Shown here piece after piece: positions 2,188 through 64,000 of a DNA stretch of 64,000 bases. Origin of the DNA: a phage. Numbering within the stretch: the first letter of the stretch is position 1; each line of letters starts with the position of its first letter. The position numbers and the translations under genes were made by a program. The stretch lies in sequence record PZ445488.1. One strand, given 5' to 3'. The notes under the pieces are model-generated. The model did not search any database. It saw nothing but the letters and a program-made list of their open reading frames with translations, and was not told where the DNA came from.

Positions 2188-2496
2188 TTACATAAGAAGC
2201 AAACGTTCGACCGGAGTACCATCAACCGAAATTACTTTATCAAGACGGAAAGAACGCCACTGGCCTAACTTGGTATCAAATGCTCGAACTGATTCACGAG
2301 GTTCATAACGAACTTCTGTTGCCGGATTGTTATTTTCATATTTGACTTCAAGTTCATCGCGCGAAGCAAACATAGTGCGTACATCACCGTTAGCCTTTTC
2401 AAATACAACACAATGAACGCCTACAGACAGAATAGTTTTAATACGTTCACGAAGAACCATAGTTTCTTGTTCAGTTAAAATCATATTATTCACCAC
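2188..2496 (-). CDS. hypothetical protein (cd-proximal)
   Basis: 102-aa ORF between cd and gene 31; no motif recognised. Confidence 0.4.
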   Translation of the reverse strand: MVNNMILTEQETMVLRERIKTILSVGVHCVVFEKANGDVRTMFASRDELEVKYENNNPATEVRYEPRESVRAFDTKLGQWRSFRLDKVISVDGTPVERLLLM

Positions 2497-3067
2497 AAAA
2501 GTTTCGGATTTGTTCCCAATTCAGAGAACGAAGATTATTACGAGAGTACTGAATTACTTCAATACCAGCTTGTTTTAGAATATCTGCCCAATTTTCAGGA
2601 GATCGGTCGTATAATTCTGCGTATACGACCTTTTTAATACCTGACTGCGTAATAGCTTTAGTACAATCAGGACATGGAGAAAGCGTCGTATATAACGTAG
2701 CACCTTCAATAGAATTACCTTTACGAGCGGCAAACAAAATTGCATTCAATTCTGCATGGATTTCATTATTAGCAGACCATGCACTATGAGCAGCTCGATG
2801 TTCTTTGGCTAAAACAAAATTATCTACCCGTCCAAATGCTGTAGTGCCTTCTTTATGTCCAGCAACGATGACTGGGATTGGTTTATTCTTCAACCAACCA
2901 TTTTCAGATGCATGTTCGCAACAGTTAACGCCACCTGCAGGTGAACCGTTATATCCAGTAGAGATAATGCGTCCATCTTTTTCAATGACGGCACCAACTT
3001 TCCATGAACAACATTTTGATTCTTGAGAAATCAGATATGCAATCTGAAGGTATGTGCTAGCTTTCAT
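2486..3067 (-). CDS. cd: dCMP deaminase
   Basis: 193 aa; zinc-dependent cytidine/dCMP deaminase motifs (HAE...PCxxC) and T4 Cd-like sequence. Confidence 0.9.
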   Translation of the reverse strand: MKASTYLQIAYLISQESKCCSWKVGAVIEKDGRIISTGYNGSPAGGVNCCEHASENGWLKNKPIPVIVAGHKEGTTAFGRVDNFVLAKEHRAAHSAWSANNEIHAELNAILFAARKGNSIEGATLYTTLSPCPDCTKAITQSGIKKVVYAELYDRSPENWADILKQAGIEVIQYSRNNLRSLNWEQIRNFCGE

Positions 3068-4059
3068 TATTGAACCTTATTAATATAAGTTAACAGCTCT
3101 TTAGTTTGTTCCCAACTGATGCACGCATCGGTAACGGAAACGCCATAGGACATATTATCAGAAATTTTTTGATTTCCTTCATGTAGGAACGATTCTATCA
3201 TAATTCCTTTGACCAAATCATTAGCTGCTAAATTTTTACCAATACCAATTTGATTGCTATAATGCCCATCAGCGTTTGCATGGCTACAGTCAACCATTAC
3301 ATAATGATTCAGACCTACTGCCCTTGCTTTGTTAGAAGCTTCTTGAATATCAGAAGAATGATAGTTCGGGCCGTTGGTCCCGCCACGCAATACGATATGC
3401 GTATTCTGATTACCTTCAGCTTCAACAATGCCTACAGTACCATCGACGTCCATACCCATATACCGATGAGGCCAGGCGGCACTATACATCGCGTCTGTAG
3501 CTACTTTAATAGAACCATTGGTTGCGTTCTTAAAGCCTACGCACATCGGTAGACCTGAAGCAATTTCACGATGTGTCTGACTTTCAGTCGTACGGGCGCC
3601 AATAGCAACCCATGAGAAAATACCAGAAAGATACTTAATCGTGAATGGGTCTAATACTTCAGTTGCTAATGGAAGTCCCATACGTAGAAGTTTACGACAC
3701 AATGTTCGTGCAACTATAAGACCGTGGTTCATATCAAAACTTCCGTCAAGATATGGATCATTTACAAGACCTTTCCAACCTACGGTAGTTCGAGGCTTTT
3801 CAAAATAAACGCGCATCACTAACAGAACATTAGGAAGACGAGTTTGAAGTTCAGCCAGACGTTTGCCGTATTCAACAGCAGCAATAGGGTCATGAATTGA
3901 ACAAGGACCTACAACAATAAGTTTGCGTGGGTCTTCACCGTTCATAATCGAATTAACTTGTTCGCGATGAGAAGCCACTTGTGATGCGTAAGCTTCCGAC
4001 AAAGGAATAATCTCAGCCAGTTCTTTTGGAGAAATAAGTTTTCCGACGACAGGTAACAT
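3067..4059 (-). CDS. 3-deoxy-D-arabino-heptulosonate-7-phosphate (DAHP) synthase, AroG/AroF/AroH class I type
   Basis: 330 aa; LIVVGPCSIHD, RVYFEKPRTTVGWKGL, GARTTESQTHRE, CSHAN, IESFLHEGNQ and VTDAC motifs align with E. coli AroG catalytic residues. Confidence 0.85.
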   Translation of the reverse strand: MLPVVGKLISPKELAEIIPLSEAYASQVASHREQVNSIMNGEDPRKLIVVGPCSIHDPIAAVEYGKRLAELQTRLPNVLLVMRVYFEKPRTTVGWKGLVNDPYLDGSFDMNHGLIVARTLCRKLLRMGLPLATEVLDPFTIKYLSGIFSWVAIGARTTESQTHREIASGLPMCVGFKNATNGSIKVATDAMYSAAWPHRYMGMDVDGTVGIVEAEGNQNTHIVLRGGTNGPNYHSSDIQEASNKARAVGLNHYVMVDCSHANADGHYSNQIGIGKNLAANDLVKGIMIESFLHEGNQKISDNMSYGVSVTDACISWEQTKELLTYINKVQ

Positions 4060-4984: not shown

Positions 4985-5155
4985 TTAACCATTCAATTGC
5001 CTGGTCGACGTTATCAAATATACCACCGTCCAAACGTTCTTCATGCTCATAGTCCAGCACATCAATACCGAACTGTCCATTTACTAAAGGCCAGGCAACA
5101 AACAAATATTCTTTATGCCGTTCAATGGCCTCAATCACTTCATATAATCGTTTCA

Positions 5156-5156
<1 letters not shown>
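4965..5156 (-). CDS. hypothetical protein
   Basis: 63-aa ORF whose start abuts the pseT stop. Confidence 0.35.
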
Positions 5157-6242
<1,086 letters not shown>

Positions 6243-41150: not shown

Positions 41151-42251
41151 TTACGCTGTGAAGATTTTATCCCACATCGCAACAACTGCATCTCGGTTAT
41201 ACTTCTTCCATACTGCTTCAGCACGTTTAACTCGAGCTTCGTATGTGTCAGTGAATTCTAATACAGCTTTTGCGTAAAGCGCAACTACTTCTTTCTTAGG
41301 AGTAGAGGAATCAATTTCTACACGCACAGTATCTGGGTCATATTCGAATGTCGCGTGCGGATAATCCTTAAAAACTAACTGAATTACAGGGACACCTTTA
41401 GAGATGGCTTCAATAGAACTATTCTCTACCGTACCCGTGTCAGGACACGTATTGATAAGTGCTTTAGCTGTTTTAAGACGTTCCATGATTTCACTGTGTG
41501 GAGCATCAATAATAACAGGATACTTAGCCGGTGGTGCCCATTTACTAGGACAGTATCCTACACCATTTTCGCCTAGTGCTTTAATCGCTTCAAGAGCAAC
41601 ATCAGTACGACGCATTTTAGTGTCATAACGTTGTGCACTAATAATCAGATCAGTCGCCGGAAGAACTTCAGGTTTATCATTCAAACAAATAACCGGATAA
41701 TCTTCGGCTTCAAACAACGGATTTGCTCGCCAATAATCATAATCAATTTTGTCAGTCAGACCTGAAGTCATATAACAATATTTGCGTTCAAATTCACGGA
41801 AGGCTTTAGTAGGAGCATAACTCTTACCACCGTTCTTATGAATTTGAATAGTCTGGTCCCAAATTTGAACAATGCCACGAGATACCGGTTCAAATGGTGT
41901 TGCCATAAAATTCTTATGAACTTTAGAGAGACCCGCGTCTTTAATTGCCTGAACGGTTAGTTTGGTCGGTTCCATAGTAACAACAAAATCGTATTCATGG
42001 ATGCCGGCTAGTTCAACAATCTTACGAGCCATAGTATAACTCATACCTAGACTGAATTTAGTCAGATGACCAACAGGATGATGATTAACCTTCCAATCAC
42101 CAAATGTGTCATTATCAAAGCCGATATAATCAATATCAGCACCGATAGAAACTAAATATTTCAACACATTTAAATGTACTGCTTCAAGACCACCTTGTAC
42201 ACGTTCTGGGTTAAATGGGACTGCGCGAGATGGGATAAACATAACTTTCAT
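41151..42251 (-). CDS. GT-B-fold glycosyltransferase (GT4-like); candidate DNA hydroxymethylcytosine sugar transferase
   Basis: 366 aa; N-terminal MKVMFIPSRAVPFNPERVQGGLEAVHLNVLKYL resembles the GT4 pattern; C-terminal TGTVENSSIEAISKGVPVIQ resembles the EX7E/EAMAxGxPVI donor-binding motif; no similarity to T4 alpha- or beta-GT. Confidence 0.6.
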   Translation of the reverse strand: MKVMFIPSRAVPFNPERVQGGLEAVHLNVLKYLVSIGADIDYIGFDNDTFGDWKVNHHPVGHLTKFSLGMSYTMARKIVELAGIHEYDFVVTMEPTKLTVQAIKDAGLSKVHKNFMATPFEPVSRGIVQIWDQTIQIHKNGGKSYAPTKAFREFERKYCYMTSGLTDKIDYDYWRANPLFEAEDYPVICLNDKPEVLPATDLIISAQRYDTKMRRTDVALEAIKALGENGVGYCPSKWAPPAKYPVIIDAPHSEIMERLKTAKALINTCPDTGTVENSSIEAISKGVPVIQLVFKDYPHATFEYDPDTVRVEIDSSTPKKEVVALYAKAVLEFTDTYEARVKRAEAVWKKYNRDAVVAMWDKIFTA

Positions 42252-54575: not shown

Positions 54576-55097
54576 TTAGTAACCATTATCCTGACGTTCA
54601 AAGTTGTGTTGGTTTTTCAAGTAGTAAAGTTTAAAGATTTCTTCAGCCGAAAGACCTAGACCTTGGAACATATTTAGAACGAAATGCAGAATATCAATCA
54701 TTTCAAATTTAATTTCAAGCTGGTCTTCAGGAGACAGTTCATCAATACGACGATTTCGATATTCAGCATGTTGTGCCTTCCACGGCTTCCATACACTGCT
54801 GGCGGCTTTTTCACCATTGCTCATACCACCAAGTGAAGTCAGCAGTTCACGGAATTCATCATCAATATAATCTTTCTGATTACGCAGCCAATCAACAACA
54901 TCACCAGCAGTGGCCAATTCATCAGGATGTTTGTTATGTTCAGGCTTGTCATTTGCCAGACGAACCTGTAAAGATTTTTGCATATCAAGCATTACCTGCA
55001 GTGGGTCTTTATCTTCGTGAATCAGAGCATTAAAATAAGCTTCTTCTGCTTTATCAACACCAGAAATAAGTTGTGAACATTCATTAAAGTGCGCCAT
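54576..55097 (-). CDS. 56: dCTPase/dUTPase gp56 (MazG-like); start set at MAHFNEC
   Basis: MAHFNEC...DPLQVMLDMQ...ELATAGDVV.W.R.QKD.IDDEFRELLTSLG matches remembered T4 gp56. Confidence 0.85.
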   Translation of the reverse strand: MAHFNECSQLISGVDKAEEAYFNALIHEDKDPLQVMLDMQKSLQVRLANDKPEHNKHPDELATAGDVVDWLRNQKDYIDDEFRELLTSLGGMSNGEKAASSVWKPWKAQHAEYRNRRIDELSPEDQLEIKFEMIDILHFVLNMFQGLGLSAEEIFKLYYLKNQHNFERQDNGY

Positions 55098-60928: not shown

Positions 60929-61270
60929 TTAAAAGAATTTAAATTTTTTCTTGGTTCGTTCATTAAAAGCTTGTTGTACTTGCATTGTAACACATTTTTC
61001 AACATGTGGTGCAAGTTCTGCTTTTCTGTCCTGGTCAAGAACTGCAAAGTCCATTACGATTTTACCATCAACCCAGTCTAGTTTTGTAATATAGACTATA
61101 TGATGAGAACCATCTTCAAGTGTAATCAGAATCTCTTGAATGACATTTTCCATTGCTGAACGGATAATTTTAAGAGATTCATTAAACACTCGTTCTTTGC
61201 GAATGTCTTCCCCTTCCGAAGAAGGGGATTCATCAACGATTTCTAGATTTAAATCATCGAGATTATTCAT
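60929..61270 (-). CDS. 40: gp40-position protein (head vertex assembly chaperone in T4); start set at MNNLDD to avoid 150-nt overlap with uvsX
   Basis: syntenic between uvsX and 41; assignment by position only. Confidence 0.45.
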   Translation of the reverse strand: MNNLDDLNLEIVDESPSSEGEDIRKERVFNESLKIIRSAMENVIQEILITLEDGSHHIVYITKLDWVDGKIVMDFAVLDQDRKAELAPHVEKCVTMQVQQAFNERTKKKFKFF

Positions 61271-62435
61271 CGAAATCTTCCATTTCGTCAAGGTCGTTTT
61301 CAATATCTGCTGCAGACGGAGCATCAGAAGCTTTAACAGGAACTTTAGTTGTTGCTTTGCAATTAATAAGGTCGTTAACAGCGTCATCAACTTCTTTAAT
61401 AGAAGAGATAGCACCTAGTTTATATTTAGTTTCAATTGCATCTCGGAAAGGTTTGTGTTTAAACAACGGTCCCCAGAATTCTACACAATCAGTAGCTTTA
61501 GCACGCCACGATTTCTCTTCACGAATCATTTCACCTGTTTCTTCGTCAAGGAATTCACGAGCATACCAACCAGCTTTAGGCTTAACAACAAATCCAATTT
61601 CAGTTGCCATTTCTAACAAGCCACTGAATGGATCAATACCGCCATCAAAATTAACCGTGATTGGGAAAGTAGATTTCTCTTTAACTGTACGAGATTTTTC
61701 TGCTTTCAACGTGAAGTCATAACCGGTCAATTCTGTACCTTCTTTAACCTGACGTTTAGAGATAAAGAATACAGTGTTAGCAGAGTAAAGAATACCTGTA
61801 CCACCACCCATAATCTCTTTAGGATATAGTCCGCCGATTTCCATTGCTGTATGGTTGATTGCAACACACGGAATATCTTTAATAGTCAGATAAGGAGTCA
61901 CAATGCGGAACAGAGATTTAAGTGCCTTAGCACGAGACATATCACCTACAACTTTCTCGTTCAATGCATCTTCGGTTTCTTTCTTAGATGCAGTATTACC
62001 GATTGAATCGATAAAGATAATAACTTTATCACCGCGTTCAATAGCATCAAGCTGATTAGTCATATCGACTTTAAGTTGTTCGACAGACTGAATTGGTGTA
62101 TGAACTACGCGGTCCAAATCAACACCCATTGAACGAAAATAAGATTCTGAAGCACCAAATTCAGAATCATAGAACAAACAAATTGCATCTTTATATTTCT
62201 TCATATACGCTGCAACCATAGTTAGTCCAAACAGCGTTTTAAAGTGTTTAGAAGGAGCAGCAAAAATAGTTAAGCCTGATTGCAATCCTGCATTCAGAGA
62301 ACCACCTAGTGCGATATTCAACATCGGAATACGAGTAGGGACTTCATCACGATTATTAAACAGCTTAGACTTAGTCAAGTCTGCAGTCATTTTAGAAGTA
62401 GAAGCTTTAATCAGACGAGATTTTAAATCAGACAT
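61263..62435 (-). CDS. uvsX: UvsX recombinase (RecA family)
   Basis: 390 aa; Walker A APSKHFKT, acidic C-terminal tail; T4 UvsX-like. Confidence 0.9.
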   Translation of the reverse strand: MSDLKSRLIKASTSKMTADLTKSKLFNNRDEVPTRIPMLNIALGGSLNAGLQSGLTIFAAPSKHFKTLFGLTMVAAYMKKYKDAICLFYDSEFGASESYFRSMGVDLDRVVHTPIQSVEQLKVDMTNQLDAIERGDKVIIFIDSIGNTASKKETEDALNEKVVGDMSRAKALKSLFRIVTPYLTIKDIPCVAINHTAMEIGGLYPKEIMGGGTGILYSANTVFFISKRQVKEGTELTGYDFTLKAEKSRTVKEKSTFPITVNFDGGIDPFSGLLEMATEIGFVVKPKAGWYAREFLDEETGEMIREEKSWRAKATDCVEFWGPLFKHKPFRDAIETKYKLGAISSIKEVDDAVNDLINCKATTKVPVKASDAPSAADIENDLDEMEDFDE

Positions 62436-62533
62436 TGTATTTTTCCATAGGCATCATTATATTTTACTCATGTTTAAAAGATAAGATGATTATATACTAA
62501 GGGTTATACAGCATTTAAAACTTTAAATGGCTC

Positions 62534-63082
62534 TTAACGAGCCCATTTGATGATTTCTGTAATCAAACCATTACGTTCGCTTGCATTAAATCCTATAACT
62601 TTGTTAGCACCATCATGATTAAGTAATTGATATGTTTGGATTTTGTTATGAATTGCAAACTCTTCAAAATGTGAAATGACTGTATTAAAACCGAATGAAG
62701 ACAAAGTAATAAGGTCGTCTTCAAAACTTTCAGTCATTTCGTTACGTGTTAAAATAATTGTGAACACATCATGGTTTTGGCAAAGACGAACATAATCCTG
62801 CTCATAAACATCAAGAACAGAGTCCGCATCTTGACGAATACGTCCATAAACCCAGTTACTAATATATCCACGGTCTAACAGATAAATCTTAGTAGGGTCT
62901 AAATAATTCAACATCGTTTCGAAACAGCCAACTTCATTTCGAGACTTAACATCGAAACGTCCATCAACTGTTCGTTTAGGGAAATCAATCTTTACATATC
63001 TTTCACTAATTTCCATTATGTCATTAATGAAAGTTGTTTTACCGGCATTATCCGGGCCATCTACTAAAATAATTTTAGCCAT
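62534..63082 (-). CDS. P-loop nucleotide/nucleoside kinase-like protein (thymidylate-kinase-like) at the T4 beta-gt locus
   Basis: 182 aa; P-loop VDGPDNAGKTT and LLDRGYIS (DRY-like) motif. Confidence 0.55.
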   Translation of the reverse strand: MAKIILVDGPDNAGKTTFINDIMEISERYVKIDFPKRTVDGRFDVKSRNEVGCFETMLNYLDPTKIYLLDRGYISNWVYGRIRQDADSVLDVYEQDYVRLCQNHDVFTIILTRNEMTESFEDDLITLSSFGFNTVISHFEEFAIHNKIQTYQLLNHDGANKVIGFNASERNGLITEIIKWAR

Positions 63083-63083
63083 T

Positions 63084-63983
63084 TTATTCCTCGATTACGA
63101 CATCTTCGTATTTAGGTATATTATACGGCGAAGAAATTAAAGCGTTAAAGTAGATGAACTCACCAAGACCTGGATGGAATACTTCTTCAGGATTTTCGAA
63201 ATATTGAATCTTCGGGCGTCCTTTAAGAATTTTATAGTACTCAGTTTTAGTTGGTTTAAAAATTCGAATCAGCGCTTCTTCAGGATACTTATTTCTGTCG
63301 AAGCTATTATTTGGATCGGTTATATAAAGCGGTTGGCCTAATTGAATTGCACATTCAACCACTTGTTCAAAACGATAGCACGGGTCACTAATTCGAAATG
63401 GATGAAAAATACCATCTAGATGAATAGGAGCCAAATCACCTACAAGACGCTGCATGATGGAAGGACGTATAACTTTCTGAGTTACGATAATCTTATTACC
63501 ATCTGCACCGGCGTTAACCAGCACTTCTTTTTGACGTTCATTCAACACAGTAGTTTGAAGTGAACGATTAACCGACAACATATCGGTTTTTAAGAATTCG
63601 TCAATATAAAAACGTGGTTTATTAGGGTCTGCCGTGATATTGAAATTGAATTCTACATCAAAAGCGCCGTCATATCCAGTGATATCTGTTATTAGAAAAT
63701 CACAATCATAATAAGCAATTAATGAATCAACCACAAATTCATTTTCAGACCAGAAATATTTACGAGTGTTATACGCGTTATCTTTATACCATAATGGAAC
63801 AAACTTAAATTCCGGGAAAAGACGTTCACATTCTTTAATATCAGATGCATTACGTGGATATGTAATCACATCACCTGGATTAGCACGGTGCAAATGAAGT
63901 TGGAAGTTGCCATCCTTAAGGATAGCATACTGTCCAGTTTCATAAGACCGCATACTCAAGATTGGTACGCGGAAAATAGCCAT
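63084..63983 (-). CDS. hypothetical 299-aa protein at the T4 beta-gt locus
   Basis: complete ORF, no similarity to T4 beta-GT or dCMP hydroxymethylase recognised. Confidence 0.5.
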   Translation of the reverse strand: MAIFRVPILSMRSYETGQYAILKDGNFQLHLHRANPGDVITYPRNASDIKECERLFPEFKFVPLWYKDNAYNTRKYFWSENEFVVDSLIAYYDCDFLITDITGYDGAFDVEFNFNITADPNKPRFYIDEFLKTDMLSVNRSLQTTVLNERQKEVLVNAGADGNKIIVTQKVIRPSIMQRLVGDLAPIHLDGIFHPFRISDPCYRFEQVVECAIQLGQPLYITDPNNSFDRNKYPEEALIRIFKPTKTEYYKILKGRPKIQYFENPEEVFHPGLGEFIYFNALISSPYNIPKYEDVVIEE

Positions 63984-64000
63984 TAGTCAAGGAATCCTTT

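Follow-up and report, generated by a model that had tools for sequence, protein, structure and literature searches.

A predicted GT-B glycosyltransferase and a thymidylate-kinase-like protein at the T4 beta-gt locus of an RB69-type phage as probable members of a three-gene 5-hydroxycytosine hypermodification core

Introduction

The virion DNA of phage RB69 carries the disaccharide beta-D-Araf-(1,3)-alpha-D-Araf (Araf, arabinofuranose) attached to O5 of 5-hydroxydeoxycytidine (5-hydroxy-dC), and arabinosylated 5-hydroxycytosine has been demonstrated chemically in virion DNA of RB69, DLP3, Bas46 and LC53 (PMC13326640). RB69 gp48, a homologue of the thymidylate synthase ThyA, produces 5-hydroxy-dCMP (PMC13326640). 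Here we analyze two adjacent genes of a related phage, encoding a 182-amino-acid (aa) kinase-like protein and a 299-aa protein, at the end of a 64,000-nucleotide stretch of DNA (sequence record PZ445488.1; this whole stretch is called the window). The pair lies at the locus where T4, with the gene order uvsX-segA-beta-gt-gene 42, encodes its beta-glucosyltransferase (beta-GT).

Hydroxylation of cytosine by a repurposed thymidylate synthase, followed by arabinosylation, has recently been described as a strategy by which phages conceal their cytosine. The resulting arabinosyl-5-hydroxycytosine protects against restriction enzymes, glycosylase defences and some CRISPR systems, and it is relevant to therapeutic phages of E. 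coli, Klebsiella and Acinetobacter. Mahler et al. 2025 and He et al. 2026 are reportedly also associated with the gene cluster. Arabinose on RB69 DNA had been described earlier, with ORF003c as the proposed transferase and ORF052/053/055 as proposed genes for uridine diphosphate (UDP)-arabinose (Thomas et al. 2018, PMC6024577), and a 2021 survey placed RB69p045 and p047 "presumably" in the arabinose pathway (PMC8056088). Lee et al. (NAR 2026, PMC13326640) assign the 299-aa and 182-aa proteins the roles that we favor here, "arabinosyltransferase 1" and "nucleotide kinase".

Results

Sequence comparison places the window in Mosigvirus, near-identical to HY126. Positions 62400-64000 matched 252 phage records, with 98.6% DNA identity to RB69 and 100% to a partial CEV1 record. 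The kinase is 98.9% and the 299-aa protein 99% identical to the RB69 proteins; against the HY126 pair (XAN60473/XAN60474), 179/182 and 296/299 residues are identical. RB69p045, annotated "thymidylate kinase", corresponds to the 182-aa gene, and ORF048c to the upstream ThyA/dCMP-hydroxymethylase homologue. HY126 runs from an arabinose-5-P isomerase gene through genes for a 562-aa protein, a small phosphatase-sized product, a 386-aa protein, the ThyA homologue, the 299-aa and the 182-aa protein to uvsX. The shared gene order in the RB69, HY126 and JS98 region (permuted in JS98 itself, see below) supports orthology and synteny. The RB69 reference NC_004928 splits the 299-aa gene into ORF046c/ORF047c (L001 4685-5585, a two-piece tblastn match), which has been explained as a sequencing error (PMC13326640); one intact open reading frame (ORF) in the window, HY126 and most relatives agrees with that explanation. 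Both window genes belong to the published RB69-type arabinosyl-5-hydroxycytosine pathway, and the locus is already known; being orthologues of published genes, they bring no new biology in themselves.

A preliminary description of the window had placed the two ORFs directly upstream of uvsX, at the T4 beta-gt locus, and read them as two unrelated genes in place of a DNA-modification gene. The coordinates (Table 1) and quoted motifs match exactly, the T4 gene order bears out the location, and a different DNA-modification module does occupy the site. The 299-aa product, regarded as an unknown and unrelated protein, turned out to have a predicted GT-B glycosyltransferase (GT) fold, so that a kinase and a non-homologous DNA-sugar transferase would stand in for the T4 transferase. 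A flavin-dependent 5-hydroxy-dCMP synthase would likewise take the place of the neighboring gene 42 (PMC13326640), and the modified base is therefore probably arabinosyl-5-hydroxycytosine and not a derivative of 5-hydroxymethylcytosine (hmC). No remnants of beta-gt, alpha-gt or beta-alpha-gt were detected in the window by tblastn with the T4 beta-gt, T4 alpha-gt and PS2 beta-alpha-gt sequences (E<=1).

Homologues at 24-100% identity occur in 344 (kinase) and 349 (299-aa protein) records of a phage genome collection, and in about 130-140 metagenomic protein clusters each, which argues that both are real genes and not chance ORFs. Genus counts for the two are identical except in Serratia (14 GT records versus 9 kinase records) and Klebsiella (26 versus 25). 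The Serratia excess amounts to five records, the same number as the Serratia records with beta-gt; the two that we checked, PS2 and Muldoon, are Muldoonvirus phages with only a remote GT homologue and without the kinase. The beta-gt gene was found in 126 records of other genera. The preliminary description had held that equal occurrence of the pair in beta-gt phages would speak against a swapped module; the pair is not found in such phages, where only the remote, kinase-less GT homologue of Muldoonvirus appears.

Across more distant phages, a ThyA-type hydroxylase, the GT and the kinase appear from sequence and gene neighborhood to form a conserved three-gene core that is independent of sugar genes. 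We compared 12 loci: RB69, Thanatos and 10 metagenomic contigs, of which six were entered from distant GT homologues and four from distant kinase homologues. All 12 encode a ThyA homologue with the RS.N signature (D169N), a GT homologue (34-48% identity) and a kinase homologue (26-44% identity), the last two side by side in 12/12. The GT and kinase genes overlap by 1-26 nucleotides (nt) in 10 of the 11 loci with a single-ORF GT. JS98 and Rhizobium phage P10VF contribute two further triads, 14 loci in total, and the triad spans Straboviridae, Pootjesviridae and metagenomic phages. Gene order permutes (ThyA-GT-kinase in RB69, kinase-ThyA-GT in JS98, ThyA-kinase-GT in contig L010), with the three genes always contiguous. 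The RS.N signature is present in RB69 gp48 (RSQN) and in 12 other ThyA neighbors of the GT and/or kinase; gene 42 of T4 and of PS2 reads RSND. Sugar-nucleotide genes are missing from the surroundings of the triad in five non-T4-like contigs (L006, L007, L009, L012, L014), which makes it independent of arabinose. A T4 gp1-type deoxynucleoside monophosphate (dNMP) kinase was not found in the flanks of the metagenomic triads, searched to about 5 kb and thus short of whole genomes.

The GT family extends to 14 records of Rhizobium phages (Pootjesviridae). P10VF has, in order, a gp1-like dNMP kinase, one ORF, ThyA (RSQN), the GT and a very divergent thymidylate kinase (TMK)-like protein. The first is gp1-like by annotation (L021 1042-1614), with a weak BLASTP match to T4 gp1 (E 5e-4). 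The last (L021 3961-4596; hhalign probability 88%) has lost the DR and F-x-D-D motifs of the kinase family and may therefore be inactive or repurposed. By synteny the locus corresponds to the RL38J1 214-216 triad; for RL38J1 gp215, the base-proximal sugar is galactose (PMC13326640).

The 299-aa protein is predicted by structural modeling to adopt a GT-B fold, with two Rossmann-like domains and an inter-domain cleft. It resembles a small, sequence-orphan GT-B enzyme whose model is structurally nearest to retaining GT4 members. No Pfam family matched at E<=1, including Glycos_transf_1 and Glyco_trans_4, and a 51-sequence profile found no match in the PDB. The canonical EX7E motif could not be mapped; region 270-278 reads H-P-G-L-G-E-F-I-Y-F-N. 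A sequence kinship with the phage's second GT was rejected (hhalign probability 0.5%). We propose, from its conserved context, that the protein is the base-proximal 5-hydroxycytosine arabinosyltransferase.

The order of the two transferases is suggested by their distribution. The preliminary description had the pair possibly cooperate with a GT encoded elsewhere in the window, at 41151..42251, and this is borne out: its product is 98% identical to PDB entry 9iqz, "phage HY126 glycosyltransferase" (phmmer 1e-248; also 9ir0), and equals RB69 gp3, the proposed beta-arabinosyltransferase 2 (PMC13326640). The second-step role that had been offered for the pair fits this enzyme better. Only 212 phage records encode the gp3-type GT, from Escherichia and Shigella phages of the Mosigvirus type and from Acinetobacter phages. 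Serratia LC53-type phages and Thanatos lack it while retaining the 299-aa GT and the kinase, and it is likewise missing from Klebsiella, Yersinia, Proteus and Dhakavirus phages that retain the 299-aa GT. Thanatos is mono-arabinosylated (PMC13326640), and LC53 is likewise reported to be. That mono-arabinosylated phages keep the 299-aa GT without a gp3-type GT supports the 299-aa GT as the probable base-proximal transferase and gp3 as the extender. Sequence searches of the PDB found solved structures of the HY126 ThyA homologue (9iqc/9ir2) and the gp3-type GT (9iqz/9ir0), but none of the kinase or the 299-aa GT.

The 182-aa protein is thymidylate-kinase-like, as first described, and its model has the TMK fold. 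The AlphaFold2 model has a predicted local distance difference test (pLDDT) score of 86.4; its low-confidence parts are residues 37-42 and the stretch around 121-130. GPDNAGKTT spans residues 9-17 and LLDRGYIS residues 68-75, giving the TMK motifs G9-P-D11-N-A-G14-K15-T16 (P-loop), F34-P35-K36-R37 and D70-R71-G72-Y73. The P-loop and DR motifs align with their TMK counterparts in HMMER alignments, which are partial and on which the TMK comparison rests. The family profile aligns the P-loop and DRxxxSNxxY to yeast, vaccinia and M. tuberculosis TMKs, and the best sequence match is SPbeta YorR. After DR, TMKs have Tyr, Phe or His; the window kinase has Gly and distant members have Phe. Residues D11, G14, K15, F34, D70, R71, S75, N76, V78, Y79, R113, F120, D122, D123, F132 and N133 are invariant across the family.

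In Pfam searches the window kinase gave only sub-threshold AAA/GTPase P-loop matches; it matched PHROG 761 ("thymidylate kinase") at 5.7e-45. Among 13 diverse family members, PF02223 matched 10 and TIGR00041 matched 12, all far under the curated thresholds, with 1.9e-7 / 3.9e-8 for the best member. The family is small (44 representatives at E<=1e-10 among 1.84 billion representative proteins). The P-loop Asp of TMKs binds the 3'-OH of the deoxynucleotide, and pairs of a ThyA homologue and a kinase are common in base-replacing phages. For the window kinase, having a ThyA homologue that hydroxylates dCMP as its neighbor points to a cytosine derivative, and not dTMP, as the substrate. We put the chances that the protein is a 5-hydroxy-dCMP kinase at about even; a glycosyl-nucleotide kinase is improbable, and the remaining weight goes to other substrates.

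Two other leads were set aside. A 5-hydroxymethyldeoxyuridine DNA kinase (5-HMUDK, PF18748) was rejected for the 182-aa protein: PF18748 is not among the 25 listed of the 30 families found for the 13 kinase members, and hhalign with M6 gp54, which as a control matches PF18748 at 7.7e-18, covers only 34 P-loop columns. Net charge was considered as a clue to DNA or nucleotide substrates. The isoelectric point (pI) has a median of 5.2 in the GT family and is about 5.0-5.3 in the kinase family, against 9.05 for T4 beta-GT and 8.66 for the M6 5-HMUDK. We dropped this argument because the DNA transferases T4 alpha-GT (6.1) and PS2 beta-GT (5.85) are acidic too.

The remaining features of the locus are collected in Table 1. 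Downstream along transcription from the kinase gene come uvsX, whose product is 67% identical to T4 UvsX over 390 aa (local tblastn), then gene 40 and gene 41. A single nucleotide separates the end of the 299-aa gene from the kinase ATG, and a GAGG Shine-Dalgarno sequence falls within the last codons of the 299-aa gene. The ATG of the 299-aa gene in turn overlaps the stop of the ThyA homologue (TAATG), of which the last five codons read KGFLD*, identical to the HY126/RB69 gp48 C-terminus; the site of the signature residue falls beyond position 64000. A scan of 62300-64000 for promoters and terminators gave none above shuffled expectation. The gp56-type enzyme has an RB69 counterpart, RB69p028, listed as the dCTPase of the pathway (PMC13326640).

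Table 1. Features of the modification locus and associated genes in the window
Feature	Position	Strand	Basis or remark
Predicted TMK-fold P-loop kinase, 182 aa	62534..63082	-	Orthologue of RB69 gp45 / DLP3 gp78 / Thanatos TH1_064
Predicted GT-B glycosyltransferase, 299 aa	63084..63983	-	Orthologue of RB69 gp46:47 / DLP3 gp79 / Thanatos TH1_063
End of ThyA-homologue gene (5-hydroxy-dCMP synthase, RB69 gp48), last five codons and stop	63983..64000	-	Window end cuts the gene
uvsX recombinase, conserved downstream flank of the module	61263..62435	-	T4 UvsX identity; RB69 and HY126 annotation
Second glycosyltransferase (RB69 gp3 / HY126 GT, GT4-like), away from the cluster	41151..42251	-	Match to 9iqz/9ir0
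dCTP pyrophosphatase (gp56-type), dCMP supply and dCTP removal	54576..55097	-	173/173 identical to the annotated HY126 dCTP pyrophosphatase

Several further observations concern relatives of these genes. The "UDP-xylose pyrophosphorylase" of Thanatos, TH1_063 (L003 5995-6897), is the orthologue of the 299-aa GT-B protein (47.5% identical), and its neighbor TH1_064, undiscussed in PMC12838424, is the kinase orthologue (44% identical). PS2, a glucosyl-hmC-type phage with beta-gt and beta-alpha-gt, carries its remote GT homologue FF83_gp042 (L017 3501-4427; hhalign probability 99.2%, 19% identity) beside an hmC-type gene 42 (RSND). Many family-invariant residues are changed in it, and it may be a third DNA GT, uncharacterized or degenerate.

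Some distant kinase members carry a fused C-terminal domain, which scores as HhH-GPD in P0270 and P0271. These two share with P0276 and P0278 an MBD4/EndoIII-like motif (G-L/C-G-K-Y-A-x-D-S ... D-K-E-L). Five relatives are of fusion length, 314-324 aa (P0278, P0281, P0285, P0287, P0327), their C-terminal halves without a Pfam match or uninspected, and the weaker kinase relative P0350 carries a UDG-superfamily domain. In locus L015, a kinase::HhH-GPD fusion (5001-6074) lies between a D169N ThyA homologue and genes for an FMN-reductase, a SIS-isomerase and an AfhE-like protein; there is no GT1 homologue within 9.8 kb of it. The fusions could serve the repair of deaminated 5-hydroxycytosine or have a DNA-directed role.

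A Flavodoxin_2 gene directly precedes ThyA in five contigs (L006 4739-5293, L007 2715-3275, L009 2793-3293, L012 2229-2723 and L014 2269-2763), and an FMN_red gene (L015 6068-6613) adjoins the D169N ThyA homologue; RB69-type phages lack a gene of this kind there. The product plausibly partners the flavin-dependent cytosine hydroxylase as its flavin reductase. In large uncultured contigs (157-356 kb), the triad is preceded by a gene for a ~218-aa protein with a faint T4 endonuclease IV match, and followed by a conserved YAcAr (SLOG-type) gene, a gene for a ~222-aa protein and dCMP deaminase, which together make up a wider conserved neighborhood (L004 7600-8650, L008 5818-6902, L011 5081-6204 and L013 5042-6095).

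Elsewhere in the window, the DAHP synthase gene that the preliminary description had tentatively linked to the pair, at 3067..4059 (-), is confirmed by its PF00793 match (5.2e-75); a dCMP deaminase gene directly adjoins it at 2486..3067 (-). Its homologues occur in 213 phage records, among phages of Escherichia, Klebsiella, Shigella, Proteus, Serratia sp. ATCC 39006 and Edwardsiella. These genera largely overlap those with the 5-hydroxycytosine module, the one sign of a possible link, but the gene is rare in Acinetobacter phages (4/57).

Discussion

Taken together, the two genes are likely to be the downstream two-thirds of a three-gene 5-hydroxycytosine hypermodification core. The ThyA-type synthase would make 5-hydroxy-dCMP next door to the GT and the kinase. 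The 182-aa dNMP kinase might then, as a less firm step, bring 5-hydroxy-dCMP to the diphosphate, and host nucleoside diphosphate kinase and the phage polymerase would place 5-hydroxycytosine into DNA. The 299-aa enzyme, presumably a GT-B protein of retaining type, would use a UDP-sugar (here UDP-Araf) to attach the first, base-proximal sugar to 5-hydroxycytosine at its 5-OH, a role inferred both here and by Lee et al., and the gp3-type GT would attach the second arabinose. The plastic region between uvsX and gene 43, the T4 site of gene 42 and beta-gt, may have received the module as a single unit, by inheritance or by transfer. The presence of the triad across Straboviridae, Pootjesviridae and uncultured phages gives concrete ground for interest in the kinase.

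Several points weigh against this reading, in which the roles of the 299-aa GT and the kinase are predictions. The purified DLP3 GTs taken singly, including gp79 (the GT1 orthologue), did not arabinosylate 5-hydroxycytosine (5hoC)-DNA with UDP-Araf or with its arabinopyranose counterpart, UDP-Arap (PMC13326640). Phosphorylation of 5-hydroxy-dCMP to the diphosphate is already carried out, in vitro as well as in E. coli, by RB69 gp159, a T4 gp1-type dNMP kinase (PMC13326640), so that a second such kinase looks redundant; yet it is kept in nearly every genome with the GT, and P10VF keeps both gp1-like and TMK-like kinases, as RB69-type phages do. The window kinase falls below the curated dTMP-kinase thresholds (no PF02223 at E<=1; TIGR00041 16.3 bits versus a cut-off of 83.25). 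In place of the basic LID that is usual in TMKs, it also shows an uncommon acidic F-x-D-D motif, and R113 is the single Arg of that region. For TH1_063, the reported activity is the synthesis of UDP-xylose out of UTP and xylose-1-P, while plasmid DNA, dCMP and dCTP were not glycosylated; 5-hydroxy substrates were never offered, and the sole control described is one without enzyme (PMC12838424). We hold the UDP-xylose result as unexplained and not as a refutation, because such activity is unexpected of a GT-B fold and the pathway has its own nucleotidyltransferase. He et al. 2026 reportedly crystallized the HY126 gp3-type GT and ThyA homologue and may assign the roles differently; since the PDB holds this hydroxylase and the gp3-type GT but not the 299-aa GT, they may have assigned arabinofuranosylation to gp3.

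Part of this would follow if the first sugar were added before replication: the GT would arabinosylate free 5-hydroxy-dCMP, the TMK-like kinase would phosphorylate the bulky arabinosyl-5-hydroxy-dCMP that a gp1-type kinase cannot handle, the polymerase would insert the glycosylated dCTP, and later GTs would extend the sugar chain on DNA. We judge this scheme unlikely, although it would explain both the second kinase kept beside the GT and the inactivity of DLP3 gp79 on 5hoC-DNA, and would mean that mutagenic, repair-prone 5-hydroxycytosine is never exposed in DNA. The data of Lee et al. cannot separate first arabinosylation on the mononucleotide from that on DNA (PMC13326640). The kinase is retained with the GT in about 344/344 genomes despite a gp1-type kinase that accepts 5-hydroxy-dCMP, P10VF has its two kinases, the GT and kinase genes overlap in 10/11 loci or, in the window, are coupled through a Shine-Dalgarno sequence for the kinase, and the F-x-D-D motif at the basic-LID site of TMKs is invariant. 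Yet the kinase adjoins ThyA rather than the GT in JS98 and L010, and the L015 fusion locus pairs a D169N ThyA with no nearby GT1 homologue. Moreover, 5-hydroxy-dC enters DNA with only gp48 and gp159 expressed, so unglycosylated 5-hydroxy-dCTP is a viable polymerase substrate. To our knowledge, all known phage DNA sugar modifications are post-replicative, which we also count against the scheme.

Other readings reassign one of the two proteins. The gp3-type GT might add the first arabinose to 5hoC-DNA, leaving the 299-aa GT to add the second sugar or to act only as a partner, like DLP3 gp76 and gp77, which work only jointly. This fits the original ORF003c proposal (Thomas et al. 2018, PMC6024577), the inactivity of every single DLP3 GT on its own (PMC13326640) and the solving of the HY126 gp3-type GT together with the hydroxylase, which suggests that it was seen as the arabinofuranosyltransferase. 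It is hard to square with the LC53-type, Thanatos, Klebsiella, Yersinia, Proteus and Dhakavirus phages that have the 299-aa GT without a gp3-type GT, or with the 299-aa GT, not the gp3 type, staying tied to the hydroxylase gene in every lineage, and we regard it as quite improbable. Even less probable is donor synthesis by the pair, also raised in the preliminary description, with the 299-aa protein as a UDP-pentose pyrophosphorylase and the kinase acting on a sugar or regenerating UTP. Its support is the UDP-xylose formed in vitro by TH1_063 (PMC12838424), where a no-enzyme control only is described. The predicted fold is GT-B and not that of a nucleotidyltransferase, the nucleotide motifs of the kinase, P-loop Asp included, are of TMK type, and non-T4-like triads occur without sugar genes nearby. 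The UDP-sugar donor genes are others, RB69 gp51-gp55, which lie farther upstream, beyond the window. A bifunctional sugar kinase/UDP-sugar pyrophosphorylase (RB69 gp52:53, HY126 AfhE) is already part of the pathway, along with a phosphatase and an isomerase. We give the faintest chance to a kinase with DNA as its substrate, one that, like the 5-HMUDKs, would phosphorylate a hydroxyl of a base or sugar within the polymer. Distant members fused to DNA-glycosylase-type domains (HhH-GPD in P0270, P0271 and P0276; UDG in P0350) recall thymidine hypermodification, which pairs a P-loop kinase with an HhH glycosylase-like transferase (PMC8989533). The fused domain, however, looks like an ordinary MBD4/EndoIII-type repair glycosylase with no AADT family match, the final base has no phosphate and its O5 is the glycosidic oxygen. 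PF18748 is unmatched among the families listed for the 13 members, M6 gp54 aligns at the P-loop only, and fold and motifs are closest to nucleotide-binding TMKs.

Our preferred reading, a hydroxylase, GT and kinase core, can be set beside the systems that it most resembles. The RB69, HY126, DLP3 and Thanatos pairs are orthologues; those of RB69 and HY126 are 98-99% identical, in the same position between uvsX and the 5-hydroxy-dCMP synthase and with the same predicted folds. The sole difference from RB69 is that the window GT is one intact ORF, split in the RB69 record. T4 beta-GT shares the locus between uvsX and a ThyA-homologue gene and, by the fold and role predicted for the window GT, the GT-B fold, a UDP-sugar donor and a hydroxyl on a C5-modified cytosine as target. 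It belongs to family GT63, without sequence homology to the window GT, and the phyletic distributions of the two are essentially disjoint. T4 beta-GT is inverting and acts on hmC in DNA, whereas the window GT resembles retaining GT4 enzymes and has 5-hydroxycytosine as its predicted target; T4 has no kinase at this site. Structural comparison with the GT4-type GT-B enzymes sucrose-phosphate synthase (6kih), BshA (6n1x) and PimA (2gej), and with T4 alpha-GT (1y6f), gives 7-12% identity, and at 299 aa the window GT is unusually small beside GT4-type enzymes.

For the kinase, the nearest known proteins are the TMKs of T. thermophilus (5x7j), vaccinia (2v54) and M. tuberculosis (1g3u) and SPbeta YorR (2axp/3kb2), from which it differs by Gly after DR, the invariant F-x-D-D and sub-cut-off scores. 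The 5-HMUDKs are likewise small P-loop kinases, of about 185 aa, beside a ThyA homologue in a base-hypermodification cluster and with an HhH association, but they have only the P-loop in common with it, and their phosphate leaving group on a methylene would not suit an aryl-type 5-OH. The T4 gp1-type kinases, including RB69 gp159, phosphorylate modified dCMP (hydroxymethyl-dCMP in T4, 5-hydroxy-dCMP in RB69), the very step proposed for the window kinase.

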